Shown here one piece after another: positions 3,940 to 32,967 of a stretch of 33,378 nt of DNA. The notes below the pieces were generated by a model. That model was not told the origin of the DNA. It saw only the letters and a program-made list of their open reading frames with translations, and searched no databases. A program made the translations under genes and the position numbers. Source of the DNA: Escherichia phage EC.P3; the sequence record PQ657771.1. One strand, given 5' to 3'. The first letter of the stretch is position 1; each line of letters starts with the position of its first letter.

Positions 3940-4033
3940 CTTGTGTTGGTCGCCAGAAAATGAAATTAGGCAGCAAACCACTTATTTGGGATGTGGGGGC
4001 CTTTTTATATCAATCAAACAGAAGGAGCATCCT

Positions 4034-4204: not shown

Positions 4205-4285
4205 GTTTTACGGATAACTGGTCAGACGAAGAATTCATTCGTCAGATGAACAAAATGCTCAATCAGCACAAAGAACAGGAGAAAG

Positions 4286-4597
4286 ATGATGATTCTGACT
4301 CTGAATGATAAGCGTGAAATATCGCAAATAATCGCAAGTTTTACTGATGAAGATTACGAACGAATCAACAGTGAAGTTGATCGCCTCTGCAAACGTTGCG
4401 ACCCAATAAGCGAAATGCTTCGCTCATATAAACCAGATGAACACACTAAGGACGCTATCGACTGGCTGGAAGATGATGACTGTAACTATCAGGAAAAAGC
4501 CGCTGAATGGTTCTGGGATGCAATAACCGAAAGAGTTAAGGCTGAATATGCCTTCGCAATATTCAAGCGCAGACACATTTTTGGAGAAGCAGCATGA
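4286..4597 (+). CDS. hypothetical acidic protein
   Basis: GGAG-type RBS; stop overlaps recT start (ATGA). Confidence 0.5.
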   Translation: MMILTLNDKREISQIIASFTDEDYERINSEVDRLCKRCDPISEMLRSYKPDEHTKDAIDWLEDDDCNYQEKAAEWFWDAITERVKAEYAFAIFKRRHIFGEAA

Positions 4598-5496: not shown

Positions 5497-5962
5497 AATA
5501 GCCAATGAATACGCAAAGCTGATGGATTCAGATTTAGAGCCAGAGATGATTGCTGACACAATAGAAGGCATGGAAGGAGAATTTACCGATAAAATAGAGC
5601 AACTTCTTGCCATTATTAAAAATGAATCTGGTTATGCTGAACGCCTCAAGGACGAGGCAAAGTCGCTGAATGAGCGAGCCGCAGTAATTCAAAATAAGAT
5701 TGACAGCATCAAATCATATATAGCGTCATCGCTTGAAATGGTTGGCAAGAAAAATATTCGAGCAGGTATTCACCAGGTAACAATCCGCAAACCGTCAGAA
5801 ATTGTAGAAATCATCGACTCAAGCGCCATTCCTCCTGAATACGTTGAGTTTGAAACGACAATTAAAGCCGACAAACTGGCAATCAAACACCAACTAAAAG
5901 CAGGAATAAATATCCCCGGCGCTCAACTCAAAGTTGGGAAACCTTCACTTCTTATCAAATAA
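5474..5962 (+). CDS. Gp157-like protein
   Basis: 162-aa coiled-coil protein directly after and overlapping recT, the usual position of Sipho_Gp157-family genes; family assignment from memory. Confidence 0.5.
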   Translation: MPVSKLYEIANEYAKLMDSDLEPEMIADTIEGMEGEFTDKIEQLLAIIKNESGYAERLKDEAKSLNERAAVIQNKIDSIKSYIASSLEMVGKKNIRAGIHQVTIRKPSEIVEIIDSSAIPPEYVEFETTIKADKLAIKHQLKAGINIPGAQLKVGKPSLLIK

Positions 5963-5973
5963 CGGTATCGACT

Positions 5974-6204
5974 ATGAAAAAGACTCCATGGGAGAAATGG
6001 GAAGTCGATTTCTTGCGCGAAGTAGCGGCGACAATGCCAGTTGAAGTTATCGCTGAAAAACTGGAAAGGACTGAAAAAGCAGTAATGGCGAAAGCAACAA
6101 GGATTGGCGCTGACATTGTTAGCCGACTTCGTGGAAGACGCTGGACAAGAGCCGAAGTATCACTTTTCGGTAAGTTCTCCGCAGAAGAAAGTGAACAAGA
6201 TTGA
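5974..6204 (+). CDS. hypothetical protein
   Basis: 76-aa ORF with plausible RBS; no recognised family. Confidence 0.4.
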   Translation: MKKTPWEKWEVDFLREVAATMPVEVIAEKLERTEKAVMAKATRIGADIVSRLRGRRWTRAEVSLFGKFSAEESEQD

Positions 6205-6598
6205 CTATCAGGCACTGCGTGAAAAGGCAGAGAAAGCCGGTGAAGATAAGTGGCAGGCTAAAAAAATAAATGGTGATTTTTTCGTTATTCGTCACGGTAG
6301 CTATACAAGACAGCATGGCTACACATCGTATCAACCCATTGCGGAGATTGATTGTAAGCCAGTCCGGGATTTTGTTGCCAAGGCTAATCCGGCTACCGTG
6401 CTGGAATTACTGGATGAACTGGAAGCAGCAAAAAAGCGCATTGCAGTATGGCTATTGCCGCAAGTTACACCATGCATCTCTACTGTGATTGTCGCCAGTG
6501 TACAAATGGTAAATATCAAACGCCAGACTTCGGTGAATATATCGGTACGTCATGGGCTGGCTGTGCAAAAGAGGCGCGCAAGGATGGCTGGCGAATAA
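6191..6598 (+). CDS. Ead/Ea22-like protein
   Basis: GTG start assumed at 6191; motif NPATVLELLDELEAAKKRIA typical of Ead/Ea22-like proteins; 3' part overlaps ORF 6448..6657 in another frame. Confidence 0.5.
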   Translation: MNKIDYQALREKAEKAGEDKWQAKKINGDFFVIRHGSYTRQHGYTSYQPIAEIDCKPVRDFVAKANPATVLELLDELEAAKKRIAVWLLPQVTPCISTVIVASVQMVNIKRQTSVNISVRHGLAVQKRRARMAGE

Positions 6599-6657
6599 GC
6601 AAAGACAAAACGCGTGCTTTTGCGCCCGGGCATAAAGTTTTGAGGATTAACAAATGA
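6448..6657 (+). CDS. small Cys-rich protein; may be frameshifted C-terminus of the Ea22-like gene
   Basis: MHLYCDCRQCTNGKYQ; overlaps previous ORF by about 150 nt; stop overlaps next start (ATGA). Confidence 0.35.
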   Translation: MAIAASYTMHLYCDCRQCTNGKYQTPDFGEYIGTSWAGCAKEARKDGWRISKDKTRAFAPGHKVLRINK

Positions 6658-7115
6658 CCACTATTACCAAAGAGCGACTGCTGACAATCAAGCAGTGGCG
6701 CGAAACATACGGACCTGGTAGCAACGTTGTACTGCCAGCAGAAGAAGCGGAAGAACTGGCACGAATTGCTCTGGAATCGCTGGAAGCAGAGGCAGTTATG
6801 TTCTGTATATCAGGACAAAATGTAGATTCAGAAGAACATGTATCAACCAGCAAAGCGGTTGTTGATGCCTGGGTTGAAGAATGGAATCAGGTTGACGGAA
6901 GTCCTGGCGAACCACTGTACAAAACTATGCCACTCTACTATCACGCTGCCTTGCCAGCGCCGGTAGTGCCGGAAGAAGCAACTCCGGAAAACGTAGAAAT
7001 GCTCTCTGGCTATGTTTCCACGTACAAATTAACCGATAGCGAGCGCGATATTGCTGCCGAAATATGGAACGCCTGCCGCGCCGCCATGCTAAACAAGGAG
7101 GAGAACAATGGATAA
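6654..7115 (+). CDS. hypothetical acidic protein
   Basis: 153 aa; translationally coupled at both ends. Confidence 0.5.
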   Translation: MTTITKERLLTIKQWRETYGPGSNVVLPAEEAEELARIALESLEAEAVMFCISGQNVDSEEHVSTSKAVVDAWVEEWNQVDGSPGEPLYKTMPLYYHAALPAPVVPEEATPENVEMLSGYVSTYKLTDSERDIAAEIWNACRAAMLNKEENNG

Positions 7116-7806
7116 TCGATATGAAATAGCAGAACAAAATGGCATGAGCCTAGAGTTCGCTGACTGGTTCTTTGATAACAAAAAAGATGGCTGTGGAAAC
7201 GCTTGGTTCGTGATGATGGCTGCCATGTGGGAAGGCTGGAAAGGCCGGGCAGAACCGCCATTTCCGGAAATACAGGCTGATGTCGCGCAAGCAATTGAAA
7301 ATCTCAAGCAGAAGTTAGTGGAATGCAATCGCTATAACTACTGCGCAGATGCAGTAAAGGGCGTAGAGGATGCCTGCCACGCTGCCATGCTTCAGGGTAG
7401 CCAACCTGTAAGCCAAACTTACAAGTTGCCAGTTAATACACCTTGCCAAGATGCGCCAGCCCATATCTGGCTGCAAACAGCTGGAGTATGGCCAGAAGAT
7501 GGCGAGTTAAGCGAATTAACGTGGTGCAGCCACAATCAGCACCATGATGACACGCTATATGTTCGAGCTGACTTGGTAAATGGCAATTCTCCGGTAACTC
7601 CGGATGGCTGGATAAGCTGTAGTGAGCGAATGCCGGAGAAATACGATTTCGATATCTGGGTATTCTCTCCATCCAGAGGCGTTATTGACGGGCTACAGTG
7701 GGATGGCTCGATGTTTACTGATGATGAATATCAGTTCGTTATTCATGACGCCACGCATTGGATGAGAAAAGCATATCCAGCAGAACCGCAGCAGGATGGT
7801 GAATGA
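7108..7806 (+). CDS. DUF551-like domain protein
   Basis: C-terminal WISCSERMPEKYDFDIWVF resembles DUF551, common in enterobacterial prophage early regions. Confidence 0.55.
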   Translation: MDNRYEIAEQNGMSLEFADWFFDNKKDGCGNAWFVMMAAMWEGWKGRAEPPFPEIQADVAQAIENLKQKLVECNRYNYCADAVKGVEDACHAAMLQGSQPVSQTYKLPVNTPCQDAPAHIWLQTAGVWPEDGELSELTWCSHNQHHDDTLYVRADLVNGNSPVTPDGWISCSERMPEKYDFDIWVFSPSRGVIDGLQWDGSMFTDDEYQFVIHDATHWMRKAYPAEPQQDGE

Positions 7807-7932
7807 TGCCGCCAGTTAAAGTTGTGATTATCACTTTGGTGATGATAGTGATTGCGAGAATCATGTCTGGTGAAGTTTGGTGGATATGGTAATGGCTAAG
7901 GCAGCAGCAGAGCGCAACATTGGAGACAAGAA

Positions 7933-8277
7933 ATGTCAGATTTGGCTATGAAGGTTTTGAAATGGCAATCAACTGGCGATGTCGGCATCAGTAGCGCAAC
8001 TCTTGCCTCAATCGCGTGTGGACTGAAAAAGAATATCTATGGTCATCACTTCGGCGCTCCACATGACGCAGCCGATTTCCGGCGATGCGTTGCACTTGTT
8101 GAGCAGATTCCAGAAATCAGAGATTCATTCGACAAGGTTGCAAAGCGCGTTCCGGCATTCAAAGGAATCCTCAACGAATGGGATTCACTCGTTGCTCTGT
8201 TGAAGTCTGAAATGAAGACGTACGGGAACAAAGCACCAGAGACTTACAGAAGAATCAGCGAGCTACGCAAGGACTAA
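7933..8277 (+). CDS. hypothetical protein
   Basis: 114-aa ORF, last gene of the plus-strand early operon; followed by hairpins. Confidence 0.5.
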   Translation: MSDLAMKVLKWQSTGDVGISSATLASIACGLKKNIYGHHFGAPHDAADFRRCVALVEQIPEIRDSFDKVAKRVPAFKGILNEWDSLVALLKSEMKTYGNKAPETYRRISELRKD

Positions 8278-8356: not shown

Positions 8357-8548
8357 ATGACCGATACCAGCCTGATTCCTGAGAAAGAAGTGATGAACAA
8401 GCTCGGTGTTTCATCACGTCAGACAATCTGGAACTATACCAAACGGCACGGATTTCCGAAGCCAGTCAGAACCCACCCCAAATCATACCTTCGTGAAGCT
8501 GTTGAAGGGTGGATTCTTAACGGTGGCGTTAATCAGAAATGCTCCTGA
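8357..8548 (+). CDS. AlpA-family DNA-binding protein (excisionase/regulator candidate)
   Basis: GGAG RBS; EKEVMNKLGVSSRQTIWNYTKRHGFPKPV fits the AlpA/Xis HTH pattern; 3' end overlaps the convergent integrase by about 20 nt. Confidence 0.6.
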   Translation: MTDTSLIPEKEVMNKLGVSSRQTIWNYTKRHGFPKPVRTHPKSYLREAVEGWILNGGVNQKCS

Positions 8549-9707
8549 TGTGCCAGAACAATTTATCAGCGTGAAGCTCATACGCTTTGCGCTGAGCCTC
8601 TATCCAGTCGTGTTTATTGTACACGGACATTATCCCGCCAAGTTCATGACCGAGCATTCGCTCAGTAACATGAGGCTCGACATTCATCTCGGACAGACGT
8701 GTAACAAGCGTTCTTCTGAAATCATGTGTTCGCCAGTAACCCAGATCCATCCCTCCCCTTATTCTATTTACGAATCGGTTGGCTGCAGCGATGCTGATCG
8801 GTTTGTTTATGTCTTCTCCAGGGAAAAGAACATCATTGTACGTTGTCATGGCCTTTTCGAGAAAAGGCTTAATTTGTTCGAAGATTGGACGGCGGATAAC
8901 ATTACCCATCTTGCTATGCTCTTTCGGTACGGTCCATACGTTGTCCAGCAGGTCAAATTCTGTCTTTGTTGCCAGCCTAAGCTCTGAGAGCCTCGCCCCC
9001 CACAGCATAAGCATCTGATGAAGGAGCTTATTTGACGTAGACGCACGGCTTCTTTCAATAGCAAGCCAAATCTTAGCCAGTTCGTGATACGACAGTACCC
9101 GATCCCCTACCTCAGCGCGGGAGCCGAAGTCCCTTGGTTGGATGCTCATAATTGCGCAACTATCTATCAACTGACGCCGCATGCACCAACTTATTGCTGA
9201 TCTTAGTTGACTTAGCACCTGCCTTGCTCGGCGTGGATTATCTCTTTCTTCTTCGGTAAGCAGGTCAACCCATTGCTTAACCGTGATAGAAGATGCCGGA
9301 CGATTAGGAAAGGCGTCATGCATGCGCTTCATAACCGTTGATCGGTAAAGTGCCTGGGTCTTTTCTCTGAGAGTTGTAGAGACGTAGTTGTCGAACCAGT
9401 AGTCGAGACACTGAGCGACCGTCATGGAGTTCTCCACCTTCTCTTCAAAATAGGTGCGTGGATCCGTTCCTGAGAAATAGAGCTTTCGCAAGTCAGCAGT
9501 GATCTGTCTGGCATCCTTCAAAGACAGGGATGGGTATCGACCAAGCCCAAGTCGATTAGGCTTGCCATGCCAGCGATAGCGGTACTGGAACTGGATGACA
9601 CCCTTCGGTGAAATTCGTACGCTGAGGCCATCGGCATCAGCCACTTCTTGTGGGCCCGAATATGGTTTACCATAAATAGTACGCAGTTTTGTGTCGCTTA
9701 TAGCCAT
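8529..9707 (-). CDS. int: tyrosine integrase, P4-type with N-terminal arm-binding domain
   Basis: 392 aa; N-terminal DGLSVRISPKGVIQFQYRYRWHGKPNRLGLGRYPSLSLKDAR typical of P4-like integrases; C-terminal HDFRRT and HELGG..SVY consistent with the catalytic region. Confidence 0.9.
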   Translation of the reverse strand: MAISDTKLRTIYGKPYSGPQEVADADGLSVRISPKGVIQFQYRYRWHGKPNRLGLGRYPSLSLKDARQITADLRKLYFSGTDPRTYFEEKVENSMTVAQCLDYWFDNYVSTTLREKTQALYRSTVMKRMHDAFPNRPASSITVKQWVDLLTEEERDNPRRARQVLSQLRSAISWCMRRQLIDSCAIMSIQPRDFGSRAEVGDRVLSYHELAKIWLAIERSRASTSNKLLHQMLMLWGARLSELRLATKTEFDLLDNVWTVPKEHSKMGNVIRRPIFEQIKPFLEKAMTTYNDVLFPGEDINKPISIAAANRFVNRIRGGMDLGYWRTHDFRRTLVTRLSEMNVEPHVTERMLGHELGGIMSVYNKHDWIEAQRKAYELHADKLFWHIRSISD

Positions 9708-10549: not shown

Positions 10550-12355
10550 TTATTTGAATAAATATGGAATTACAATTGCCACAGAAAATGTTACAGGGTT
10601 ACTGTGACCATTTGTTATGTGTACGCGAATTTTATTTGAAGATAACACCTGCAATTGAGTTGTGGCAATAGCAGAAGCTGCACTTCTTGATGTTATCTTA
10701 ACACTTGCATTTACCATGTCTAACTTTTCTGTTGTTGTTATATCTTGATATACATTGACACCTGCTGGAACATCTTGGAATGTTATAGTCTGATTGTAGA
10801 AACCATTAAACAATACTGTTTTCCCATGGGATACACCAACGCCTGATCTTATTGTTGGTAACAGTGTAGAGTTATCAGATGATATAAATGGAAACCCTAA
10901 GTCACCATCTGGTGAGGTGTTATTATTAAAAACATCGACATGGTCAAGATAGGTTGCCCTAACCATGCTTAATGGCCTCTGGTTACTATTCCATGAGTCT
11001 GCTGGAGTAACAATTTTAGGCTTGAACACAAGATCTCGTATACCCCAAGAATCAATTGCTATACATCCGTTTTCAAGCCCTTTAGCATATACAGTGTTAG
11101 TTTCGTCCATGCTGAAAGACGTTGGCGTACCGACCAGTATGCGGGCATAAGCATACTTTTTATAAAATGCATCACCTGGAGTTGCAGCACCGCCCCGCCC
11201 AGTAAGACCGTTATAAATAGATTGGTCATCCATATTTTCAAAGTAACAAAATTTAAACGCTATATTTTGCGGTCGAATAAGTGCAGCAGAATCAGTACCA
11301 ACAACGTAATTCGTCCACCGTTCAAACGCCATGGCAATAAAATTAATCGGACCATTACCAGCAGCGCCTGATATTTTGAAAAATGTATCAAAATCAACAG
11401 ATCTTCCGCCTATAAACTTAATGTTATATGCCCGCTGTATATCTGGGCCATTTTTAATTGCAAGCCAATCTGTATCTATAAATGTTACGTAAAAAGAATT
11501 GATACCTTGACATGGAACGTCAAACCCAAGCCAAGAAGTGCGGTTTGTTTTAATATTACCATTTAATGTCGATATTCCTTTATTCGTACCGATAGTACCG
11601 TTTCCATACTGTGGAATTCCCTTTACAATGACATCAGATAAAAAAACATCCGAATTTTCGCATTGAATAGCATAGTCCCCAGGAACGTCACAATATAATT
11701 GACTTGACTCCGCTCCTATAACCTTATTAGTCATATCGCCAGAATATCCACGAATCTCAAAGCGCCTACCTCCATATACGAGCTTTCGTTTAATTGTAAG
11801 CACTGAACCAGGTGGGATTGTAATAATCAAATGATTTGGATAGGCTGCCATCATTTCTTCAACAGCATCTGAGTCATCAGCCACACCATCGCATGTTGCG
11901 CCATAAGCCTGAGGTGTTACTGCGAACACAGCATTCTGAATTGTTCCTCCTTGTGTTAGGGGTATCATGTCAGCCCCCTTTCCATCTCCAGTCGATGTTA
12001 TTTCCTGGCGAAGCTGATCAGGATCATACTTCAGCACATTGGGAAAATTGAACTGCTGCGAACCATGCGCATCATAAACAGCCATAGAATGGCCTTGCAC
12101 GGTAACGAATTTGGCAATCTGTCCGTTATATACCGGATATCCGGCAGCGTTAATGATTATTGGTTGCGAAACAGGAATGTGAGAACCGTCTTCGTTCTCT
12201 ACATAAACCTGAATCTGGTTTTCAGGATTTACCGGGTCAGTGTCAATTTTACCGATATAAATTTTGCCATTAGCTACGGCTTTAAAAGAACGCGCCATAG
12301 TGAAGAGTTGCGAAGGCATACTCACTACAACATTGGCATTTATTGAATCTGTCAT
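10550..12355 (-). CDS. tailspike protein: P22-type head-binding domain, divergent receptor-binding domain
   Basis: Start moved to ATG 12355 (GGAG 8 nt upstream); [59 protein letters not shown] closely matches the P22 gp9 N-terminus as recalled; remainder diverges. Confidence 0.85.
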
Positions 12356-12413
12356 TTGATTTGCTCCAGATACAAGGAATGGCCGCAGCATGGCTACGGT
12401 GAATTTTGGGCAT

Positions 12414-12436
12414 AAAAAAACCCAGCCGAAGCTGGG
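12414..12436 (-). terminator. rho-independent terminator between ant and tailspike
   Basis: Minus-strand CCCAGC-TTCG-GCTGGG then TTTTTTT. Confidence 0.7.
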
Positions 12437-12455
12437 TCGTTGCGTTGGTTATCTG

Positions 12456-13334
12456 TCAGTAGTTATGTACTGAAGGAGGTAATTCTTTATTCTTAAGTCT
12501 CATCCATGCGGAAAGATTCGTTGGTCCGTCTGGCTCATTGATATCAACATCTCGTGTGTGATTGATTAAAACGTCTCTCGCCATATCGATAATACGGGAG
12601 AACTCATAACCGCAGTCATGACATCTGCCGGAATAGTTCGATTGAATTTGTTTTAGCGCCGGATACAGTTCGCGGAATAATGCCTGTGAGCGGTTGGCAT
12701 AATCCCATAACCATACAAGGCTGTTTGCTTCTTTTGCAGAAAGCTCGTTGGTTTTCTTCTCTTGTTTGCCGATGAATTCACCTTCAAGCACTACCCTGTG
12801 GATGTACTCTACGGCTTGCGGGATTTGTTCAATTGAAAGTTCATCAATGCTGTCAATACCAAAACGCTGATGAACCATATTGTATGCATCGTCATAGCGA
12901 AGTCCTTTCTTTCCTACCAGCATGTTTACTGCATCGCGTAGCGGTGTTCTTTCCTCAACAGTGGTTTTCTTTCCTTTTACATACTCGCCATGTTTGCGAA
13001 TTGAAGGCAGAACTTCTGCTGTTACCCACTTGCGGAATTTGTGCGGGACTGAACCTTTATTGACTGCATCGCGGCAGCGCAGAACCAATGTATACATACC
13101 TGATTCGCTCACAATGCTTAGATTCTGCTCACCACCAAGGGTGTAACTTAAAGTTACTCCCTTTTCATCGTCATCAAGTGCAGTAAGCGCCTTGCGTGAG
13201 TTAGTCAGGGTTAAAGCATCACAAACATCTTTTGCTACAAACCACGGCTCACCGCACTTGTTGATGACGCGGATTTCACTGTCGCCGAATTTGAAGATGG
13301 TGAAATCGTTTTGTGCCTTTGCTATACTTTTCAT
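12456..13334 (-). CDS. ant: antirepressor (BRO-N domain)
   Basis: [33 protein letters not shown] is a BRO-N signature; downstream of arc as in P22 immI; start set to ATG 13334 (AGGAAAT upstream), alternative TTG at 13400. Confidence 0.7.
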
Positions 13335-13396
13335 GTCAATATTTCCTAATCCGATTTGTTGATGCCGAAGCCCTGACTGTTCCCGCAGTTGGGGCT

Positions 13397-13666
13397 TCAA
13401 CGTTTTTCCACTTCATTTTGAATTTGCTTAAGTAGCATATTTGTCTCGTCAAGCCTCTTGTTAATACGGTCAAGGCTTTCTACTAAATCGTTATGTGCAT
13501 GTGATACTTCGTAATTTGAGACTGATTTCTTTTCCTCTATCGTCTTTGTCAATCGTTCCCCTGATTGATACATATTGATTAACGATGTAAAAATCACGAG
13601 CAAGCAAACTACAATGATTGCGCCAGACAAAAATTGTAAAGAACGATCAAGCAATGACACCTTCAT
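13397..13666 (-). CDS. small membrane-anchored coiled-coil protein
   Basis: One N-terminal hydrophobic helix ([19 protein letters not shown]) then heptad-like charged segment; coupled to the arc stop; lies between arc and ant. Confidence 0.5.
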
Positions 13667-13815
13667 ACCGCCACCCCCTCTCTCTTCAGGCTGTCTATCA
13701 GGCGCTTGATAACCTCTGAGTTAAACGACCTGCACTCTTCCTTTGCCTTGCTACCGATAGCATCCTTTAACGACTGCGGCATCCTTACCAAAATCTTACT
13801 TATTTCTTTCTCCAT
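13663..13815 (-). CDS. arc: Arc-like ribbon-helix-helix repressor
   Basis: Start at ATG 13815 with GGAGGG 5 nt upstream; MEKEISKILVRMPQSLKDAIGSKAKEECRSFNSEVIKRLIDSLKREG matches the Arc fold and RS.NSE motif. Confidence 0.75.
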   Translation of the reverse strand: MEKEISKILVRMPQSLKDAIGSKAKEECRSFNSEVIKRLIDSLKREGVAV

Positions 13816-13929
13816 GTTACCCTCCACACAAACAACTCTTTTCGAATACAAAAGATAGCAAAGTGAGTATATCTAGTCAAAATTTTTTTGCATACACTTT
13901 GATATCAAATTGAATACCAAAGGTGTGAT
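13816..13929. promoter_or_regulatory. divergent Pant/Pmnt-like promoter-operator region
   Basis: 114-bp AT-rich spacer between divergent arc-like and mnt-like genes; inverted repeats CAAAGTG (13859..13865) and CACTTTG (13895..13901). Confidence 0.5.
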
Positions 13930-14178
13930 ATGGCAAAGGGTGTGTCAATTTCTCCAACTACGGTAAGAATCCCTGAATCTTTACGCGAGGCTCTTGCTGT
14001 CAGAGCATCAAAAAATGGTCGCTCTGTTAACTCCGAGATCGTCATGATTTTGCAAGCCGCGATTGATGAAGATAGGTCGCCAAAGTCAGTTGAGTCATTT
14101 GCTCAGCAAGAAGCTGACAAATTCAAAGAGGCGCTGCTTGAGACGCTAAAGACCATGTATGGTAAGGATGAAAAATAA
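13930..14178 (+). CDS. mnt: Mnt-like ribbon-helix-helix repressor
   Basis: 82 aa; RIPESLREALAVRASKNGRSVNSEIVMILQAAI and C-terminal KFKEALLETLKTMYGK parallel P22 Mnt, including the tetramerisation tail. Confidence 0.8.
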   Translation: MAKGVSISPTTVRIPESLREALAVRASKNGRSVNSEIVMILQAAIDEDRSPKSVESFAQQEADKFKEALLETLKTMYGKDEK

Positions 14179-14714
14179 TGCTGCACACAATTCATTTCTT
14201 ATGCCCTGTTAACACTGCCACTGTTGGGCAACTTCAGAACCACTGTCTCACCGCATTATCTCAAGGCGCAACTGAATTAAATATCCATATATCAAGTCAG
14301 GGAGGGGAAACTGCTGCTGGCTTTACTGCGTATAACTTTCTTAAGTCACTCCCTGTTACCGTTAGAACTCACAACATAAGCAATGTTGAATCCATAGCTA
14401 ATATCGTTTTCCTGGCTGGCTCAGAACGTTTCGCAAACCCATTATCAAGATTCCTGTTACATCCTCTATTATGGGGCTTTGCCACCCCAGCCGCCGACCA
14501 TGCCAGATTGAGAGAGTACGGGAAATGCCTCGATAACGATCTTGATCGCTTCGTTGAGACGTTCAATATCGACATCGGAACCCATATTAGGTGGGCATCC
14601 CTGATAGCAGACTCGACCATTTTGGATGCTAACAAGGCTCTTGAGCATGGCATAATTAATTCCATAAAAACTGCAAGGCTGGTATCCAATCAGGCAAACT
14701 GGTGGGTTGTTTGA
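14178..14714 (+). CDS. ClpP-like serine peptidase (S14-like fold)
   Basis: Aligns by eye to ClpP: NIHISSQGG vs INSPGG, ESIANIVFLAG vs AASMGAFLLTAG (Ser retained), LLHPLLWG vs MIHQPLGG (His retained), Asp present downstream; start overlaps mnt stop (TAATG). Confidence 0.7.
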   Translation: MLHTIHFLCPVNTATVGQLQNHCLTALSQGATELNIHISSQGGETAAGFTAYNFLKSLPVTVRTHNISNVESIANIVFLAGSERFANPLSRFLLHPLLWGFATPAADHARLREYGKCLDNDLDRFVETFNIDIGTHIRWASLIADSTILDANKALEHGIINSIKTARLVSNQANWWVV

Positions 14715-14740
14715 TGGGTAAATCATGATTACTCCTTATA

Positions 14741-14766
14741 AAAAACCCACCTGACGGTGGGTTTTA
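14741..14766. terminator. bidirectional rho-independent terminator between convergent genes
   Basis: AAAAA-CCCACC-TGAC-GGTGGG-TTTT, exactly between the ClpP-like stop (14714) and the 140-aa gene stop (14767). Confidence 0.7.
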
Positions 14767-15189
14767 TTAGTGCTTGTATAGCTTGAACTCCCTGTCGAGC
14801 CATAAGACATAAAAAGTGGCTCCTATCTTATAACCAACCATAGGTGCCTTAGAGCAAAATCTGAACGCAATGAAATCCACATCTTGAGTAACATGCTTAG
14901 GAATCGGAGCCTTTATCGCGTTTCTGGCAATTTTTTCCGTCCCAAGCCCGTGTTTATCAGATTTTCGTATCTCATCCCATGACATCTGACTTAACCTGAA
15001 CAGCCTATCTGCAAATGCTGCCTTTTCATGCTTTTGGCAGCAATCTAGGCAATACCCCTTTTGTAGGTATCTAAGAGAAAATACAGGCGGACTTTTGTCT
15101 ACATCATGAGATTCGTGATGGATAGAGAGGCCAACAGTAGCAGAGCTCTCTTTATCCCTCTGTTTTATTCTTCCCTTAACTCTAGACAT
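14767..15189 (-). CDS. unrecognised 140-aa protein, candidate toxin/effector partner of the Panacea protein
   Basis: 5 nt downstream of the DUF4065 gene on the same strand; no transmembrane segment; no family recognised. Confidence 0.5.
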   Translation of the reverse strand: MSRVKGRIKQRDKESSATVGLSIHHESHDVDKSPPVFSLRYLQKGYCLDCCQKHEKAAFADRLFRLSQMSWDEIRKSDKHGLGTEKIARNAIKAPIPKHVTQDVDFIAFRFCSKAPMVGYKIGATFYVLWLDREFKLYKH

Positions 15190-15194
15190 ACACG

Positions 15195-15644
15195 TCAGTT
15201 AATTAACGTTTTGAAAAAACCTTTCATAGAATCAAGTGTGATTTCTTGGCTAACCGCACCCTCAATGTAAGCATCTTTCCATGGCTGCTCTTCGTGAGTC
15301 ATATTGCGCAGTTTCCAGGCAGAAAACTGACCATAAACTTTATACACCTCATCCAGCAATTCAATTTCATCTTCACTGAATTTTTTAGCGTCAAAGTTTT
15401 CTGGCGCAGGTAAAGCTCCGTTACCACAGTCCCTATATTTACGATACAATTCAGGAACTACTGGCCCATGCATCCAGGCTTCAATTTTCTCATTAAATAG
15501 CGGTTTACCCAGAAGAACCAGAGAAAACCCTTGGGCATAATACGTCAACTTCTGAATTTTTAGGTTAGAGATAATGTCGCCACTTTCTTCATCGCAATGC
15601 GCCAAGAAGTAGTCGGCGACATCAAAACAAGTGAGCATAAACAT
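15195..15644 (-). CDS. Panacea-domain (DUF4065, GepA/SocA-like) protein, candidate antitoxin
   Basis: CFDVADYFLAHCDEESGDIISNLKIQKLTYYAQGFSLVLLGKPLFNEKIEAWMHGPVVPELY matches the DUF4065 core pattern. Confidence 0.7.
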   Translation of the reverse strand: MFMLTCFDVADYFLAHCDEESGDIISNLKIQKLTYYAQGFSLVLLGKPLFNEKIEAWMHGPVVPELYRKYRDCGNGALPAPENFDAKKFSEDEIELLDEVYKVYGQFSAWKLRNMTHEEQPWKDAYIEGAVSQEITLDSMKGFFKTLIN

Positions 15645-16012: not shown

Positions 16013-16240
16013 GTGAAGCGATGGTTCCTCATAATTACTGTTTTCGCGATCATTTACACTATTTTCCCTGCATTAAAAGCACCAATGCAAATAATTTCGC
16101 TTGCAATAATTGCAATTGGTGCTTTCATTGCAGTAGCCGTACTTGTGTTTAAGGTTTTAAAGTTTTTAGTTTGGCTATCAAAAGATGATGGATGCAAAGT
16201 TCATCAAGAAAAAGAAGGCAAAATAACCAAAGTTGACTAA
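16013..16240 (+). CDS. small two-helix membrane protein
   Basis: GTG start 8 nt after AAGGAGGT; two hydrophobic helices and Lys-rich C-terminus; convergent with gp16. Confidence 0.55.
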   Translation: MKRWFLIITVFAIIYTIFPALKAPMQIISLAIIAIGAFIAVAVLVFKVLKFLVWLSKDDGCKVHQEKEGKITKVD

Positions 16241-18360
16241 CTGTCACTAGCGAGCCATGTAATAATCCCCGTGCGGGCAATGGTTTTTGCTTCATCTGTT
16301 GATAAGGTTTTCTCCCATCTCTTAAATGCCCCAGATTGCATCAGTTTCCTTTCTATTGCGCGTCTCACTTCTGCTCTGTCTACTGGTGCGTTTTGCAGGC
16401 GAAATAGCATTGATTTAAACTCAGGAGAAGACAGTAGAGCATCAGCAGCCTTTATCCTACTTGTTTTCCCTGACATCAATGCTGACGTTATCACCCCTGT
16501 TGCACCTACACCAGGAAGACCAGATAAGCTTGTAATACCTTCCGCCGCAGCAGCTTTTGAGGCTATTCCATAAATTTTTGCGAGACTACCCTTTTCTTTC
16601 AGAAAGTTATTAACTTGCTGATCCACAAGACTACTAGCATACTGCTTACCAGTATTGAGTCTATTCATAGCCTTAGCTGCTTGATAAATCGTATCAAGGC
16701 GCTTTGATGCATCTGTGCCAATAGCATCACGGAGAGCCTTCATATTGGCCCCATTGCGTGACATTCCGTTATACCATTTTACAAATCCATCAACTCCTAA
16801 TTGCTGACCAGGTGATTTGGCATAGCTGGTAAATGCTTTATTCATTGAGGTGAGCGCAACTTCCTGCCGCATATCCTTTGGAATCGACTTCATTAATTGC
16901 CTAAAGTCGCCACCGTTTCCTTTTGCCATATTAACAACAGCACTTTCAACTTTTGGAATTGCTGATTGCTGAAGTTTTCTACCCAAGACGGTTACAGCAT
17001 CATCTTCAATGGATTTTCGTTTTTTTACCAACTCCTTACCAAGCGTCCATAATTCCCCTGCGCCATATTTTTCTGCGACAGCCTGTTGGTCATCTGTTAT
17101 GGCTGCATATAACTTTTTAAGAACACCTGTTTCTTCATCCTTGAATGGACCAGAGCCTTTGCCAATAGCTTGTCCAACCTGCTTTCTAGCGAGATCTAAA
17201 CGCCCATACGTTGGCAAGGTGTTTGGATCAAGTCGGTTCAATGTCCGCTTCATTATTGGAGATAATTCATCAATTCCACCTATATCATCAGCAAAATCCT
17301 CTAAAAAATTCAATGTATTAGTTGCCTCAATCCGGTCTCTTACAGGAACCTTTTCGGCAATTTTGTTGTAGATGTTATCTGACTGATTTTGTAATGATGA
17401 AATGGTTTTATCAAAATTATCTGCAAGCCTGTCAGAAACCAGTTGCTTATCAAGGCTTCCCCCAAATGAAGTTATCATTTCATCAGCTTTTCTTCCTAAT
17501 TCAGTAATAAAACGCTTATGCGCCTCACTAATCTCTGTTCCAGGGAGACTTGCCACTGCATTATCAAGAGCCCTGACAGCAGGATTATTGGAGATCATGC
17601 CTGGAGTGGCATAATTTTCCAGTTCTAGCTCACGAATAGCATTTATCGCGTTAAAATCAGGATTAACTTCATCGGCGAAATCTTGAATAGCTCGTTGGCC
17701 GCCGATAAATTTATTGTCCATTGCGCCAGCAGCTTTCTTTAACGTTGCTTTAGATGATTTACTCCCCATCCCTACGGATGAGCGATAAATATCTCCGGCA
17801 CTATTTTTAATTTTTCCTGCAATCTTCCCAAGAGCTGGACCAACAATCTCTGCTACAGGGCCAGCCACAGCGCCAATAGCAGCTCCAGAAGCAACATCGC
17901 TATTTGTTCCATTGGCTACAATAGCCCCTTCTCCAGCACCAAGCCCTGCGGCGGCAGCCAGCCTTGCCGCCCCTTTCGGAACCTGAGAAATAATCCCACC
18001 ACCACTAACAAATGGTGCTGCTTGTCCAACGAACTCACCAACATCTTGTGCGGTTGATGGTTTTGCCGCTAACTTCTGCTGTAGAGACTGAATTGCGGCT
18101 TGCTCTTCTGGTGTCATATCCTGAAATAGACCAACACCTTTACCAACATCCATCAATCCACTGAGAACGCCATACATAAAACGGTCGAAACCGTTAGCAT
18201 TATTAACAACATTTTCCTGTCTGGAATTTTCCTCTGGTGAAACCAAAGGAGATTGCTGCTGTTCTGGTTGGGCATCAAGCACAAAGCCATCAGGAAGCTG
18301 TGAGTTATCAGGCTGTTCATCCAGAACAAATCCCTCTGGTAAACCTACATTGGTTGCCAT
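16237..18360 (-). CDS. ejection (injection) protein, gp16-like
   Basis: Position after gp20 in the P22 order; Gly/Ala-rich segments; longer than P22 gp16 as recalled. Confidence 0.75.
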
Positions 18361-25911: not shown

Positions 25912-28113
25912 TTACTGCTGTGGTTGTTGCTGAGTTGATTTTTGCAGGATGCTGCTGATGTCCATGCGCTGCGCATGGCCTTGCGCCTGACTTTTCAGGA
26001 CAAGCTCTGCATCAGCACGGGCATTATCTCCTTGCTGTTGCTGGAACTGTCCGAGCAGTTTCAGCGCCTCACGGATATCAGATTTTTGCTGGCTATCGGC
26101 AGATGCGAGGATTTTCACAACATTTGCCGCTGCAACCTGAGCATCCGTCTGTGCCTGGAATGCTTTAACCTGAATGGCTGCCTGCTCGTTCTGCGCTTTC
26201 TGCAATTCAGCCTGACCAGCAAGAAGCTGACCTTGCGCTGCAACCATAGCCGGATCTGGCTGACTGGCCTGTTGTTGTTTCGCCTGTTCAACCATCTGCT
26301 GTTCTTCAGGCGTTCTCGGCTTGATAACGCCAGACAGAAGCAACTGATTGCGGTTGTATTCTTTCAGGTCGTCCATCCCTTCGCCGTCCATATTGTCGAG
26401 AATCATCGACGATACAAGGTCGTGCTTCGGCGTTCCTGGTGGGATAAGTGCCAGCATGGAAAGTAACGACTTAACCGTTGCGTCACGGCGAGTAGCGAAC
26501 GACTGACCGACATCGACAGTCACTTCATAGTTACCCTGCGAAAGGTCGTTAAGCGCGATAACCTGCCCTGTCTGACGGTCAACCACTTCACCAGTCATCA
26601 GCGCCACGTCATCGCTGCCGTCCTCATTAACGATACGCATCGGCGTATCGCTGCCATAGACTTCACGCGCCATAGAAAGCCACACAACGCCAGCGCGACG
26701 CATAGATTTAGCCATGTTGTCCATGTAGATATAGGACTGCGTGTCCATCCGGTTAAAAATGCTATCAACGGTATCAGTAGCGACGTTGCTCGGCATGTTC
26801 TCAAGCTGCGACGCACCTGTAATTTGCTGAATAGCCGTTCCGGTGTACTGCAATAGCCCGGCAAGAGCTGGAGGCATTTGTGTCGGAGGCGTATAACTGC
26901 TGACCTGAGCCTGCGCAGTAATATCTCCGTTTTTGTTTTTCAGACTGACCATCGGCAGGAACGCCGGGCGCTTTTTGTTGCGCTCCGCCCAATGAGTGGC
27001 GAGAGGACCAGGAATCATGTCAACATCAACTACAGGAATGCCATCACCGCCAGCCTGAGTAGCGTTATCTGCAATCATGGAAACCATCAGGTTCTCAAGA
27101 CGCTGTGCATCCATCGCTTTTGCTGCGTGTCCTTCAATTCGCTCCTGATTATCAACAAATGAGCGACGCCCATATACCGGGATGAGAGGAATATGTTCGC
27201 CCGGAATACGCTTCGGTTCTTCCAGCCATTCAGCGCCAGACAGAAGACCGCAATAAACGCGGCGCTTCTTCACCGTTCGCTCGCCAATCAGTTCGAATGC
27301 ACCATCGGTCAGTTCGTCGACAATATCTTTTATTTGCTCTTCATCATAGATTGCCGTTTCTCCGCTAACAGGGTTGCGCCACGCCGTGATCTTCACCTTC
27401 TCTATGCGAACTTCGTAGTAGCGTCCAACATAGATGGCATCTGGCGTTGACCAGTCATATTGAGTGCCAGTGTTATCACGAGAAAGGCTTGCCGCGGTGG
27501 AATCAGGGTATTCAGCCTCGAACGCTTTGGGCGTCATGGAGAACATTTCCATAGCCCACATAGCATCAGAGCGGTCATATTGCTTGCTGTCCTGATCAAA
27601 GAAGACGCATGTCGCTGGGTCGTAAACAGGAAGAAGGCTGATGCGTCGCTGCTCGTTACTCGGATCCATTTCATCTTCGTAATCGGCACACATGCGGAAA
27701 CAACCGAATCCGCCCGTTACAGCATCATCAAATGCGTTATCACACGCTTCGCCACCGGATGTTTCCTGATAGTCAGCGCGGAATTTGCCGTTCATCTTTT
27801 CGGCTAACGCTTCCGATGCCTTATCGTCCTTAGGCCTGAATTTAACGCTGATGCGATTCTGTCGATACTCGCCAATGATGCGATCACATTCACGGGCAAT
27901 CTTATTCAGTTCAAAGCGCGGGTAATGCTCAAACCTGCCTTCATCAAATGAGTAACCAGCGTTTGTGCTGCCTTCCCACTGTGCGCCGGACACCCGGACG
28001 AAACGTTGAGCCTCAATAATCTGCTCACGCATATCCTTCGTTGCTGACCAGGCATTATCAAAGTTGCACAGCACCTTGCGATGCCAGTCAGTCATCTTTC
28101 TATCATCAGCCAT
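25912..28113 (-). CDS. portal protein
   Basis: Start set to ATG 28113 ([10 protein letters not shown]; GGAG upstream; overlaps terL stop); Gln-rich C-terminal barrel region as in P22 gp1. Confidence 0.9.
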   Translation of the reverse strand: MADDRKMTDWHRKVLCNFDNAWSATKDMREQIIEAQRFVRVSGAQWEGSTNAGYSFDEGRFEHYPRFELNKIARECDRIIGEYRQNRISVKFRPKDDKASEALAEKMNGKFRADYQETSGGEACDNAFDDAVTGGFGCFRMCADYEDEMDPSNEQRRISLLPVYDPATCVFFDQDSKQYDRSDAMWAMEMFSMTPKAFEAEYPDSTAASLSRDNTGTQYDWSTPDAIYVGRYYEVRIEKVKITAWRNPVSGETAIYDEEQIKDIVDELTDGAFELIGERTVKKRRVYCGLLSGAEWLEEPKRIPGEHIPLIPVYGRRSFVDNQERIEGHAAKAMDAQRLENLMVSMIADNATQAGGDGIPVVDVDMIPGPLATHWAERNKKRPAFLPMVSLKNKNGDITAQAQVSSYTPPTQMPPALAGLLQYTGTAIQQITGASQLENMPSNVATDTVDSIFNRMDTQSYIYMDNMAKSMRRAGVVWLSMAREVYGSDTPMRIVNEDGSDDVALMTGEVVDRQTGQVIALNDLSQGNYEVTVDVGQSFATRRDATVKSLLSMLALIPPGTPKHDLVSSMILDNMDGEGMDDLKEYNRNQLLLSGVIKPRTPEEQQMVEQAKQQQASQPDPAMVAAQGQLLAGQAELQKAQNEQAAIQVKAFQAQTDAQVAAANVVKILASADSQQKSDIREALKLLGQFQQQQGDNARADAELVLKSQAQGHAQRMDISSILQKSTQQQPQQ

Positions 28114-29609
28114 CATCCAACTCCGCAAGGTATGTTGTAGCTTGAGTAATCAATCTCTTTAGGATCTTTGATGTCTCGCATCTGTATTGCAAAACGCCTC
28201 ATCATGTAGCCATAGCGAACAGCAGAAAGGATGTCGTCATTTAGCTTGACGATCTTCCCGTTCTCATCGCGGTGATACAGACGAAACTCTTCAAAGAATG
28301 GCTCGCAGGTGTTAAATACCTTGAAACGACCGTCGAGCATCATGTCGCGTATCTCTGCTATCCCGGGTTCGACCGCATTACCTCCATCAGGCCATGTTGC
28401 ATGATCTGGCAACATGTCGAACCCAGCTTCGGCGTATTGTTCCTTGAGCTGAGCGCCGCCTCCCTTTTCGTGCTGATGCCCGTCATGAGGCCAAGCCGTA
28501 GGGGTGTTTTTGCTCCATGCTTTAACAGCACTCCATGCCTCTGTCGCCTTCTTCTGTTTGGCCTTCCAGACGCGAGAAAGATAAATCACGTCCTCGTCTT
28601 TATCCCACCAAAGCTGGATATGTGCCTGTGGGTGATCCCATCCGAAGTCCATTGCATTGATGACGTAGAAGTGATCAGGACACTCGAACGGCTGACACTT
28701 AATCGTCTCTTCCGGTATCTGGAAGATTCGACCGCTACCCATCGTAGGAATACCGCGAGCACGCGCCTCTCTCTCATGCTCGGGATAGGATGCGATGATT
28801 TGCTCTTTCTGTTCGTCTGTGTAGTGCTCAGCGTCATAGATGGTCATGTTGACCACTTTCTGCGACTTGCTGGGATTCTTCAGGAACTTGGTAACAACGT
28901 CAGACATCCCCATCAGCGGGGTAAACGTCAGAATTGAGAATTGCCCGTATTTGTTGGTACGGGTAAGACCTTCGCCATAAATGCTGTATGGTGGCTCTTC
29001 GTCAAACCACACGCCGTGGATTGTGTCACCCTGCCAGCGAGCGCGGCCTTGCGAGTATGGTTTGAAGTAGCAGATTGAAATGCCATCTTCAACGCCATCA
29101 GCCGTGTGATGCTTAACCAGAAGATGATCAACAAGGTTCGGAAAGAAAGGAGACTTCTTCCAGCTAATGATGTCTTCTTTAGGTATGGAACCGTAGCCTG
29201 GCTCATCATTCTCTTCGATACGACCACACAGGATGCGTTGAGTCGTTTTGGTTACAGTCTCGTTTGTCTCGCCGCCAATCCAGAAGACAACAGGCTCATA
29301 GAAACGCTTACCTTTCCACTCACCGCCATATTTACCATCAGCAGGATAGCCTTTTGTGCCCGGGTAACGCCCGGTAAGGTGAAACGCGACTTCAGCAGCA
29401 CCAGTAAATGACTTACCAAGCTGGTTACCAGCCATAAAACATCGCTCTGGATAGTCATGCCCGGCGTCGATGAACTCACGCTGTTTGCTGTATGGCGTAA
29501 ATTCATATAGCAGGTGTGTGTTACGGTAGTTCTCTTCTTCTTCGAGTAGCTCGAGCAATTCGATTTGCTCTTCGTCGCTCAAGTTATCAAGAATCGCGTC
29601 CAGTTCCAC
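28113..29609 (-). CDS. terminase large subunit
   Basis: 498-aa translation matches P22 gp2 as recalled ([37 protein letters not shown]...); track start at 29609 appears to be GTG. Confidence 0.95.
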
Positions 29610-30075
29610 GGTTGAATAGCTCCTTGATACGAGAGCGCCGCTTATCGCGATCTCCCTTATCAGGTGTCACGTCTTCAACTTGCGACTGCTCTTTGAGGCC
29701 CAAATCACGGGCGATGATGTTAGCGTTGAGAAGGTCAGCGGCTGCGCCAGAGAATTTCTGGTCGTAGATGATGTCTTCCGCTCGTGATGTGACGTCAGAA
29801 AAACCTTCCATTGACCGGAAGGTTCCCCATGTTTGCCTGGTGATATCAAGGAAGGTACACAATCCTGAAATAGTCATGGCTCGCATCTTAGGGACATTAG
29901 CCTTAATTATTTCTCCCTGATATGAAAATACCTTACCCTCCCATAGCGGGTTATCATCAGCCCACTCGAAGTATTCACAACAAGCAGCCCACAGCGCCTC
30001 AGGCGATTCGAATTTAGGATTTCGCCCATGACTACTGCGGGCCTCCCAAAATCGGTTGCCCTTTGGTGCTGCCAT
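29587..30075 (-). CDS. terminase small subunit
   Basis: 162 aa; [40 protein letters not shown] and C-terminal [19 protein letters not shown] match P22 gp3 as recalled. Confidence 0.95.
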
Positions 30076-30754: not shown

Positions 30755-31276
30755 TCAGCACGCGATATCGAGAGTCAGCTGCAGTTGCTCGCGCCAGTAC
30801 TCGACATTTGCTTCAATAACCGGCTTATCCCATCGCCAGCGAGCCATCTCTCTTGCCCCATTGCTGGCTTTTGATTTCCGGTCATCGCGAATGCGACATG
30901 CTTGCTCATATTTCTGCTGCTCAGTCAGTTCACCGCGAAGCAGACTATCAATGTGCAGGTCGCACCATACGGAGAATTTCGGATCGCACCATCTTGCAAA
31001 GGCAACTGATAACTTTGGGTGCAGCCATGTTCCGCCTCCCCTGTCCTTTCGTGCCTTGCTTGTTTTTACATACCCGGAATCACGGGTATGTAGAATTTTC
31101 GATGGTTCACCTGAATAAACCTCATCCAGAGCTCTAACGTATTCGAGAGTTTCAGCGTTGGACAACCAGTGATCCAGACGCTTCCCGAAACGTTTTGCAA
31201 TATCAGTGGCATTAATCCAGCCATCCGTATTGAAGCGGATAGGTTCGCCTTTGTAATTCAGTGGAACGATATTCAT
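30755..31276 (-). CDS. KilA-N domain protein
   Basis: GEPIRFNTDGWINATDIAKRFGKRLDHWL and GGGTWLHPKLSVAFARWCDPKFSVW fit the KilA-N pattern. Confidence 0.65.
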   Translation of the reverse strand: MNIVPLNYKGEPIRFNTDGWINATDIAKRFGKRLDHWLSNAETLEYVRALDEVYSGEPSKILHTRDSGYVKTSKARKDRGGGTWLHPKLSVAFARWCDPKFSVWCDLHIDSLLRGELTEQQKYEQACRIRDDRKSKASNGAREMARWRWDKPVIEANVEYWREQLQLTLDIAC

Positions 31277-31422
31277 AGCGTCTTACCTTTTAGAAAGATG
31301 AGCCTGTTCGCACAGAAAAGCCGCCCCGAGATGGTCGCCACCATATACGGCAGTTCTCAGGCTCAGCTTTCTGAAAGACTCGGGATTGTTACGCGCTGCG
31401 ATGCGCTGTTTACTGCAGATGT

Positions 31423-31446
31423 AAAAAAGCCCCGCGAATGCGAGGC
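31423..31446 (-). terminator. rho-independent terminator downstream of Rz region
   Basis: Minus-strand GCCTCGC-ATTC-GCGGGGC (one G-U pair) then TTTTTT. Confidence 0.6.
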
Positions 31447-31620
31447 TAAATCCTGGTGTTTTTGATGACTGGCTCTTATCTCAACGCAGCCCCTTACCGC
31501 GCGCCAGATGCTCAATATCAAGCATCAGCAATGAGATGTTTAATCTGGATTCACTCCAGAAGTGATCATCACCCTGTCTACAGAGCCAGATGTGAAGGAT
31601 GATGAGTAAAATTATCGCTA

Positions 31621-32007
31621 TCATCGAAGGCATTGCGTCCTGATGTACTCCTGCAGGTAGTTAACCTGCGCGGTTATCCTGTCGATTCCACTTCGGAGAC
31701 GGTAATAATTGAGTTCAGCATCTGCTGTAAGTCTTGGGCTTTCTCCATCGCCCATGCTGCTGGCTCCGGTCGTTGACTTTGCACAGATGGCGGCGACTTG
31801 CAGGCGCTTACGACCAGCAGAAACATCAGCACGGAGACTTTCGATAGTCGCGTTAGCATCAGCAAGCTCCTTTGTGTATCTGGCGTCAAGTTCTGCTACA
31901 TCACGTTGACGCTTCTGCATGTCAGCGATTGTGGATGTGGCCTTATCGCGCTGCTCTTTATAGGCGATTGTGGCGACCGGTGCTGATCTCCGGTTTGCTG
32001 CAACTGC
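31621..32007 (-). pseudogene. Rz: Rz (i-spanin) remnant lacking in-frame N-terminal membrane anchor
   Basis: Frame reads AVAANRRSAPVATIAYKEQRDK...MQKRQRDVAELDARYTKELADA...QCLR, homologous to the lambda Rz periplasmic domain; in-frame TAG at 32008..32010 and no start before Met 31920; a Rz-anchor-like stretch SALIVVV sits in another frame. Confidence 0.5.
31674..31859 (-). CDS. Rz1: Rz1-like o-spanin lipoprotein embedded in Rz frame +1
   Basis: MLTRLSKVSVLMFLLVVSAC with lipobox LVVSAC then Pro-rich segment; embedded as in lambda. Confidence 0.6.
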   Translation of the reverse strand: MLTRLSKVSVLMFLLVVSACKSPPSVQSQRPEPAAWAMEKAQDLQQMLNSIITVSEVESTG

Positions 32008-32063
32008 CTACAGCGGGCTACGTGGCCACACCGAATCCAGCGAAAGATTCTTGCCCTTACACA

Positions 32064-32321
32064 TCAGCCTGTGCATTCACCACAACGATAAGAGCACTGC
32101 GCGGCACCTTTCACCAATTCCGCGAGGTCTGCGGGTCGTCTTCCCCTCTTGCCCTGTTTGACTATCAGGACGCCGTTAACTATTGCGTGACGCTCGCCTT
32201 TGCTGTCTCTGTTGTACTTGAGCACTGTTCCTCTTGCACAGGAAAGCCTCCTCGCCACTTCGGTCTGATTGCCTCGTGTCTGGATAAGAAGTTCTGGTAT
32301 CGTTTGAATTGTGGCGTTCAT
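32064..32321 (-). CDS. ninH: NinH-like protein with about 25-aa non-homologous C-terminal extension
   Basis: First 57 aa (TIPELLIQTRGNQTEVARRLSCARGTVLKYNRDSKGERHAIVNGVLIV) resemble lambda NinH; extension runs toward the Rz remnant. Confidence 0.6.
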   Translation of the reverse strand: MNATIQTIPELLIQTRGNQTEVARRLSCARGTVLKYNRDSKGERHAIVNGVLIVKQGKRGRRPADLAELVKGAAQCSYRCGECTG

Positions 32322-32680
32322 ACGTTCTCCAGTTCGGTGATTTTTATTCCAAGCCTTCCGCCTGGTACTTTCACACCACGAATTACGCGAATGTCATCGA
32401 ATTGCTCGTCGTCTTCCGCAAATCCGGCGTGGATAAGGGAGTCGAGTAAACCTTTCAGGATGTTGTCGAGGTCGCGGCGGCGGGAGTCTGGAACGTCTGC
32501 GATGACTTTGATACGGACTCGTGATTTGGTGAAAATGTCTAACTTGAGTTGGCGAATGATTTGCTGAACGTCTTTTCGGTATTTCTGGCCTTTATCGCTG
32601 ATGTAGTATTGGCTTCCCCGTCTTCGCCAGTAGGTATTCACCGACGGCGGGTAAGGAAGCACAAACTGATATTCGTTCAT
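32318..32680 (-). CDS. rusA: RusA-family Holliday junction resolvase
   Basis: 120 aa, start with PYPPSVNTYW, acidic catalytic region; coupled to flanking nin genes. Confidence 0.85.
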   Translation of the reverse strand: MNEYQFVLPYPPSVNTYWRRRGSQYYISDKGQKYRKDVQQIIRQLKLDIFTKSRVRIKVIADVPDSRRRDLDNILKGLLDSLIHAGFAEDDEQFDDIRVIRGVKVPGGRLGIKITELENV

Positions 32681-32967
32681 GGCTTAATCTTCCCCTCCTT
32701 CAGCAGTATCGCCTGCGTCCTGATCACGCCTTCGAGGTGGTAAAGTCTGGCGTCTTTGTTGTCGAGATTATGGGTGCGTCGGTCGATTTCATCGTGACAC
32801 GCGCTACAAGCCCATGCGCCGATCAGGTCGTCAGGCTTCATTCCCGTTCCGCAAATTCCAGCCATCCGGTAATGTGCCAGAACTGTAGTTTCAGGATTGC
32901 CATTGCATACGCCGTAAATACGTACCTGACATTCTCTGCCGCGTGCTTCTTTGCGTAGATTGGCCAT
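32677..32967 (-). CDS. DUF1364 (YbcO-like) nin-region protein
   Basis: RGRECQVRIYGVCNGNPETTVLAHYRM...GAWACSACHDEIDRRTH matches the YbcO pattern as recalled; directly upstream of rusA as in DLP12. Confidence 0.7.
   Translation of the reverse strand: MANLRKEARGRECQVRIYGVCNGNPETTVLAHYRMAGICGTGMKPDDLIGAWACSACHDEIDRRTHNLDNKDARLYHLEGVIRTQAILLKEGKIKP

Follow-up and report, generated by a model that had tools for sequence, protein, structure and literature searches.

We are highly confident that the genes missing from the window (the whole 33,378-nt stretch of DNA analyzed here), its odd NinH and its truncated Rz were produced after assembly, in silico, by excising the matches of a lambda/vector screen and joining the flanks. 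The missing intervals coincide to the base with alignments to phage lambda, and the window can be reconstructed from the genome of phage E212 by taking these intervals out. The missing-gene finding is not a real biological feature.

Comparison of the Window with Phage E212

A megablast search with window positions 31200-32700 against 50,697 phage records returned a single full-length match, Escherichia phage E212 (MZ043897.1, Lederbergvirus), with 100% identity but in three pieces, the 1,501-nt query being spread over 3,539 nt of E212. When the whole window was compared with E212 (38,252 bp), it proved to be reverse-complemented and circularly permuted, and to align in 13 collinear blocks, all of them 100% identical. 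Since window position 33378 corresponds to E212 9507 and position 1 to E212 9506, the two ends of the window are adjacent in E212 and the window thus represents a whole, circularly permuted genome. There is no substitution relative to E212 across 31.8 kb and there are no host flanks, and to judge by its sequence the window looks like the record of a complete P22-like (Lederbergvirus) phage genome rather than a piece of chromosome. Sequencing or assembly indels were considered and rejected, the few small differences between the window and E212 being alignment-edge effects at scars or block ends. The ends of the window fall inside a Roi/ANT-domain gene, which is consequently split across them. 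The genes on either side of the region of interest, all on the minus strand, are as follows.

Reading down from 33378, minus strand: ANT-domain (Roi-like) gene, first of the region
32677-32967, minus strand: YbcO
32318-32680, minus strand: RusA
30755-31276, minus strand: KilA-N protein, downstream of a 50-aa ORF
Between the KilA-N gene and the 162-aa ORF, minus strand: DUF2560 gene
29587-30075, minus strand: 162-aa ORF, the small terminase according to the E212 annotation
28113-29609, minus strand: 498-aa ORF, large terminase
25912-28128, minus strand: 738-aa ORF, portal

Late Activation and Lysis Genes Are Absent

From NinH to the i-spanin, the annotation of E212 reads NinH, Q, holin, lysin, i-spanin. 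A preliminary description of the window had reported that Q, holin and endolysin are absent, and this holds. Searches with the Q, S and R proteins of E212 by tblastn against all six window frames gave no match better than E=2 (the best for the endolysin R was E=2.1), and Pfam scans of 40 window ORFs and genes, a set that did not include the 498-aa terminase or the genes for portal, coat, integrase and tailspike, found no antiterminator-Q, holin, lysozyme or amidase family. The same profile and tblastn searches turned up no endolysin, holin or Q elsewhere in the window; the discovery of one would, according to the description, have overturned its claim. A Q-type late antiterminator system, that is, a Q of PF03589 or PF06530 with a downstream pR'/qut and terminator, is therefore not in the window, and the lambdoid lysis cassette is reduced to an Rz without its anchor and an Rz1, holin and endolysin both being absent. 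A hidden lysin was also sought in the 707-aa ejection protein, labeled "transglycosylase" in E212, which has no Pfam match. This protein (window 16237-18360) remains without a Pfam match at E<=0.01. Its counterparts by position in related prophages carry PF26808 (Phage_P22_gp16), and E212 probably over-annotates what is an ejection protein.

Two Scars Separated by a Spacer

Comparison with E212 resolves the region between NinH and the KilA-N gene into the features listed here.

32136-32321, minus strand: native NinH codons 1-62, complete; tblastn 100% identity to the 62-aa NinH of E212
32064-32135, minus strand: NinH tail, which we regard as artefactual, of 23 codons plus stop; extra residues PADLAELVKGAAQCSYRCGECTG
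32136/32137: scar 1; 922 nt gone, equal to E212 10749-11670; Q, pR', 6S RNA region, tR'
31967-32136: retained spacer of 170 nt, equal to E212 11671-11840 with 100% identity
31966/31967: scar 2; 1,116 nt gone, equal to E212 11841-12956; S leader, holin S and endolysin R, together with nt 1-92 of Rz
31621-31968, minus strand: Rz (i-spanin) remnant, residues 31-145 at 31624-31968, plus stop; tblastn 100% identity to the 145-aa Rz of E212
31677-31859, minus strand: Rz1 (o-spanin lipoprotein), intact, 61 aa, in the +1 frame of Rz; Pfam Rz1 E=1.9e-19
31481-31633, minus strand: conserved 50-aa ORF with a hydrophobic N terminus, just downstream of Rz; 100% identical to E212

The NinH ORF (32064-32321, minus strand) encodes 85 aa, the first 60 of which match Pfam Phage_NinH (E=3.3e-25). 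The odd C-terminal extension described earlier is there, in the form of 23 extra residues that follow residues 1-62, themselves identical to E212 NinH. Its origin can be read from E212, where the NinH stop codon TGA overlaps the start of Q as ATGA (10749-10752): since the excision begins at the A of ATGA (10749), the NinH stop is lost and the frame runs 23 codons into the spacer. The interval gone at scar 1 is a blastn high-scoring pair (HSP) between E212 10749-11670 and lambda 43886-44807, with 97.7% identity and a raw score of 796. Within this excised stretch lie Q (PF03589, E=1.2e-57), a late promoter of the form TTGACT-17-TAAATT and lambda-like 6S/tR' sequence; on reading the E212 Q-to-S interval we recognized what we take to be the pR', 6S and tR' sequence of lambda.

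The spacer between the two scars is the only portion of the E212 Q-to-S interval that has no lambda homologue, being absent from the E212-lambda alignments. Its length is 171 nt with the shared junction base and 170 nt when that base is counted as part of the cut. The spacer is also present, with 98.2% identity, in the natural E. coli prophage L008, where it separates Q from the holin gene (locus 3995-4165).

At scar 2, the missing interval is an HSP between E212 11841-12956 and lambda 44942-46057 (96.6% identity, raw score 888), and the excised S matches PF05106, while the excised R of E212 has 158 aa. The scar ends where the Rz of E212 loses its likeness to the Rz of lambda. What is left of Rz matches Pfam Phage_lysis (E=1.7e-36) over profile positions 17-125 only, and its C-terminal part is called as a 99-aa ORF at 31621-31920. 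While the membrane anchor of Rz had been taken to be present but out of frame, the N-terminal transmembrane anchor is absent from the window: codons 1-30 plus 2 nt are gone, and the anchor, MSRVTAIISALVICIIVCLSWAV, lies in the excised part. Nor is NinH fused to the truncated Rz, as had been proposed, because the two are separate ORFs in different frames, with 170 nt of other DNA between the junctions. The embedded Rz1 is intact, as had been stated, and its translation shows a lipobox-like VSAC motif. The 50-aa ORF that follows is unaffected by the excisions; it matches no Pfam family, and L005 and L008, both natural prophages, have a 50-aa gene called in the corresponding place. The preliminary description had interpreted the region as a deletion junction and called for an alignment to map the breakpoints, which comparison with E212 places at 32136/32137 and 31966/31967. 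Sequence is indeed missing and joined, but at two junctions rather than one, and these are, in our reading, computational rather than biological, two of 12 excisions that track lambda.

Missing Intervals Coincide with Lambda Alignments

Altogether, the window is without 12 intervals of E212 that add up to 6,091 nt. The E212 segments that hold each of these are ~95-99% identical to lambda (NC_001416), and only four lambda matches are left in the window, all weak (78-92% identity) and no longer than 123 nt. VecScreen aligns with a match reward of +1, a mismatch penalty of -5 and gap costs of 3/3 (PMC8864876). We compared E212 with lambda by blastn under this VecScreen scheme, in which a gap costs 3 to open and 3 to extend, with dust filtering and a search space of 1.75e12. 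The 12 HSPs with a raw score of at least 33 are the 12 missing intervals, with coordinates that agree to the base at 24 of 24 endpoints. In E212 coordinates, the excised HSPs are the following.

1953-1991
2013-2205
2207-2332
2986-3037
4083-4489
5507-7933
8461-8627
9061-9193
10749-11670 (scar 1)
11841-12956 (scar 2)
35788-36042
37515-37768

The lowest raw score among the excised HSPs is 33, and HSPs scoring 23, 22 and 16 are still in the window. For internal matches, VecScreen classes scores of at least 30 as strong and scores of 23-24 as weak. The fit extends to the smallest pieces. A single base that separates two HSPs, E212 2206, survives at window position 3989, the 21-nt island E212 1992-2012 is kept as window 3990-4010, and the shortest segments gone from the window include ones of 39 nt and 52 nt. 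Default megablast was tried as a source of the boundaries and comes close but misfits (5441 instead of 5507, 10738 instead of 10749, 12977 instead of 12956), a mismatch penalty of -3 does not reproduce them either, and among the schemes tried only the -5 of VecScreen fits. Taken together, endpoints that depend on scoring against a different genome, a threshold on the score and the survival of one lone base bear the signature of software, not of recombination or of read filtering.

The other ten intervals leave scars in the window at the positions listed here.

313/314
746/747
1273/1274
2290/2291
3335/3336
3988/3989/3990
4010/4011
6446/6447
7918/7919

These scars take out part of ninF, a ninE-like stretch and, in one piece of 2,427 nt, O, P and ninB, as well as ral/ea10-, ea8.5- and ea22-like stretches; several of the losses are short ones in the early left region. 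At the cI scar, 407 nt corresponding to the C-terminal two thirds of the gene are gone, so that cI ends after residue 95 and an HTH-only ORF is left at 2006-2338. Immediately downstream of cI lies a gene for a 285-aa NYN-domain protein (window 2422-3279; PF01936, E=6.8e-09), in the position that lambda uses for rexAB; it may be an exclusion or defense gene. The flanks joined at the scars share only 0-5 nt of microhomology. Deletion mediated by insertion sequences (IS) or by illegitimate recombination was dropped as a candidate once the endpoints were seen to track lambda similarity, and no IS ends were found at the window junctions.

When the 12 HSPs are removed from E212 and the remainder is reverse-complemented and rotated, the result equals the window over a prefix of 12,627 nt and a suffix of 19,221 nt, which reproduces 31,848 of the 33,378 window bases exactly. 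The length balance is exact as well (38,252 - 6,091 - 313 + 1,530 = 33,378).

The immI Region Points to a Sibling of E212 as Parent

The 1,530 nt at window 12628-14157 are the only difference between the window and E212 that is not explained by lambda. In the window, the immI region is intact, with ant at 12456-13400 (Bro-N plus P22_AR_C), an 89-aa ORF, arc at 13663-13851 and mnt at 13930-14178, whereas E212 has instead a 313-nt 3' fragment of an IS21-family istB (PF01695, E=1.5e-34) at E212 30766-31078. Because the ant ORF is unbroken across 12627/12628, the window has the ancestral state at this place and E212 the derived one. It follows from the intact immI that the parent of the window is a sibling of E212 and not the E212 record itself. 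No identical prophage, with both an intact immI and the lambda-like segments, was found in complete E. coli genomes (best 97.4%), and contigs that encode an identical Mnt protein were rejected as parents since they are different phages. The exact parent, E212-like with intact ant-arc-mnt, was thus not found and the reconstruction rests on a sibling genome.

Next to immI, between it and the ejection-protein genes, the window carries moron-like accessory genes (14178-15644). A 140-aa ORF among them belongs to no family, and a ClpP-Panacea pair also adjoins mnt in many E. coli prophages (L012-L014). The two members of the pair in the window are these.

14178-14714: ClpP-like protease (PF00574)
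15195-15644: SocA/Panacea-domain protein

Junctions and Natural Relatives in Sequence Collections

Neither the 50,697 phage records nor 5,426 complete E. coli genomes contain a contiguous match across both junctions. Partial matches occur in 2,364 E. coli genomes; among the best matches listed, the ninH and spacer pieces have Q between them. A 31-mer over 31966/31967 occurs in none of IMG/VR, the GTDB genomes and the JGI metagenomes, and one over 32136/32137 does not occur in IMG/VR; likewise, 153 billion gene positions include no entry for the exact 85-aa NinH fusion protein. All natural contigs that were read and encode an identical KilA-N protein (8/8) carry genes for antiterminator, holin, endolysin and full-length Rz upstream of it. 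For instance, prophage L005 (CP147587.1) has the order YbcO-RusA-NinH-Q-S-R-Rz-50aa-KilA-N, as in E212, and has 2,165 nt in place of the 171 nt of the window.

Origin of the Missing Segments

How could such a sequence have come about? The real phage would be a sibling of E212 in which a lambda-type Q, pR', 6S/tR', S, R and a lambda-like 5' end of Rz lie between ninH and the distal Rz. A search for local alignments to lambda or lambda-derived vectors, scored as in VecScreen, would have flagged 12 intervals that were then cut out. Between ninH and Rz, two such cuts (922 nt and 1,116 nt) would flank the 170-nt spacer without a lambda homologue, the first removing the NinH stop and thereby creating the 23-residue tail, the second removing the Rz anchor and leaving Rz1 whole. 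It is almost certain that the full lambda-type Q-S-R-Rz cassette is present in the physical phage, as it is in E212 and natural prophages. Lambda or lambda-vector sequence is included in UniVec. Submissions to NCBI are screened with VecScreen/UniVec, and flagged sequence must go, for example by excision, before release (PMC8864876). We infer that the likeliest routes to the excision are a submitter answering a vector-contamination notice or a dataset-cleaning step.

It is exceedingly improbable that the losses are real deletions, in which a decayed defective prophage or phage would have shed Q, S, R, the Rz anchor, O, P, ninB and the C-terminal domain of cI by illegitimate recombination. Microhomologies as short as those at the junctions are found in illegitimate deletions, and cryptic lambdoid prophages without lysis genes are established. 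However, every one of the 24 endpoints is a lambda alignment edge under one scoring scheme, and no biological process senses such edges; nor would one be expected to remove 39-nt and 52-nt segments while sparing one base between cuts. Twelve deletions that strip a circular phage genome of replication, late activation, lysis and repressor function, with zero substitutions in 31.8 kb, are not believable as a natural course of events. In addition, the window is circularly permuted and free of host flanks, and the ninH-Rz junctions occur in none of the collections searched for them. A physical, defective P22-like genome could also have lost all its lambda-homologous segments by a process that does sense homology, such as repeated abortive recombination with a co-resident lambda. 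We consider this no more probable than ordinary deletion, and such a genome would persist only with a helper.

An artefact at the level of reads is slightly less improbable but still very unlikely. Lambda DNA is widely used as a sequencing control, and the DNA that is missing is exactly the lambda-like DNA, as would be the case if reads mapping to lambda had been filtered before assembly and the gaps closed by an assembler or scaffolder. Yet read filtering cannot yield the base-exact boundaries of local alignments, drop a 39-nt match or keep an isolated base and a 21-nt island between cuts, and 0-5 nt in common is too little for an assembler to join the flanks. Least probable of all is natural mosaicism, with a lineage that never had lambda-type modules at these places and an E212 that gained them. 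Lambdoid genomes are mosaic, and some cut ends do fall at gene boundaries, such as the stop of the ea22-like gene and the gene start at E212 8627. But other cuts break genes, stopping cI after residue 95, leaving Rz without the part before residue 31 and depriving NinH of its stop; replication, late-activation and lysis functions are gone without replacement; and the natural relatives all carry a cassette in this region. Excision of lambda matches from a finished assembly hence remains the explanation that we adopt.

With this explanation, the finding has value for quality control only, and the whole window is to be treated as scrubbed sequence. Any conclusion that late activation, lysis or replication (O, P, ninB) is lacking, or that cI is truncated, would reflect the same artefact, as would the odd fusion ORFs at all the scars, including those at 31966/31967 and 32136/32137. 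The record would provide a concrete case of a vector/lambda contamination screen damaging a genuine lambdoid phage genome, and is worth flagging to its curators.

Comparison with Known Systems

The closest system is E212 itself, which has the same gene order as the window and 100% identity over 31,848 nt, and which supplies the missing ninH-Q-pR'-S-R-Rz context; unlike the window, it keeps 6,091 nt of lambda-like DNA. The late region of lambda (NC_001416 43886-46427: Q, pR', 6S RNA/tR', S, R and Rz/Rz1) is the counterpart of the E212 segments excised between ninH and Rz, and set beside it the window has only Rz1, the 170-nt non-lambda spacer and the distal stretch of Rz that is not of lambda type (78% identity to lambda over 123 nt). 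Natural cryptic lambdoid prophages without lysis genes look superficially alike, as the nin region abuts a spanin remnant and there is no Q, holin or endolysin. Such prophages arise by biological deletion or IS events and gather point mutations. In contrast, the endpoints in the window follow similarity to lambda and there are no substitutions. The trimming of vector contamination, of the VecScreen/UniVec type, is a further parallel, since all 24 boundaries are reproduced and sub-threshold matches are kept. The window departs from ordinary contamination trimming in that the spans flagged here are genuine lambda-homologous phage genes, and in that the flanks were joined without Ns.
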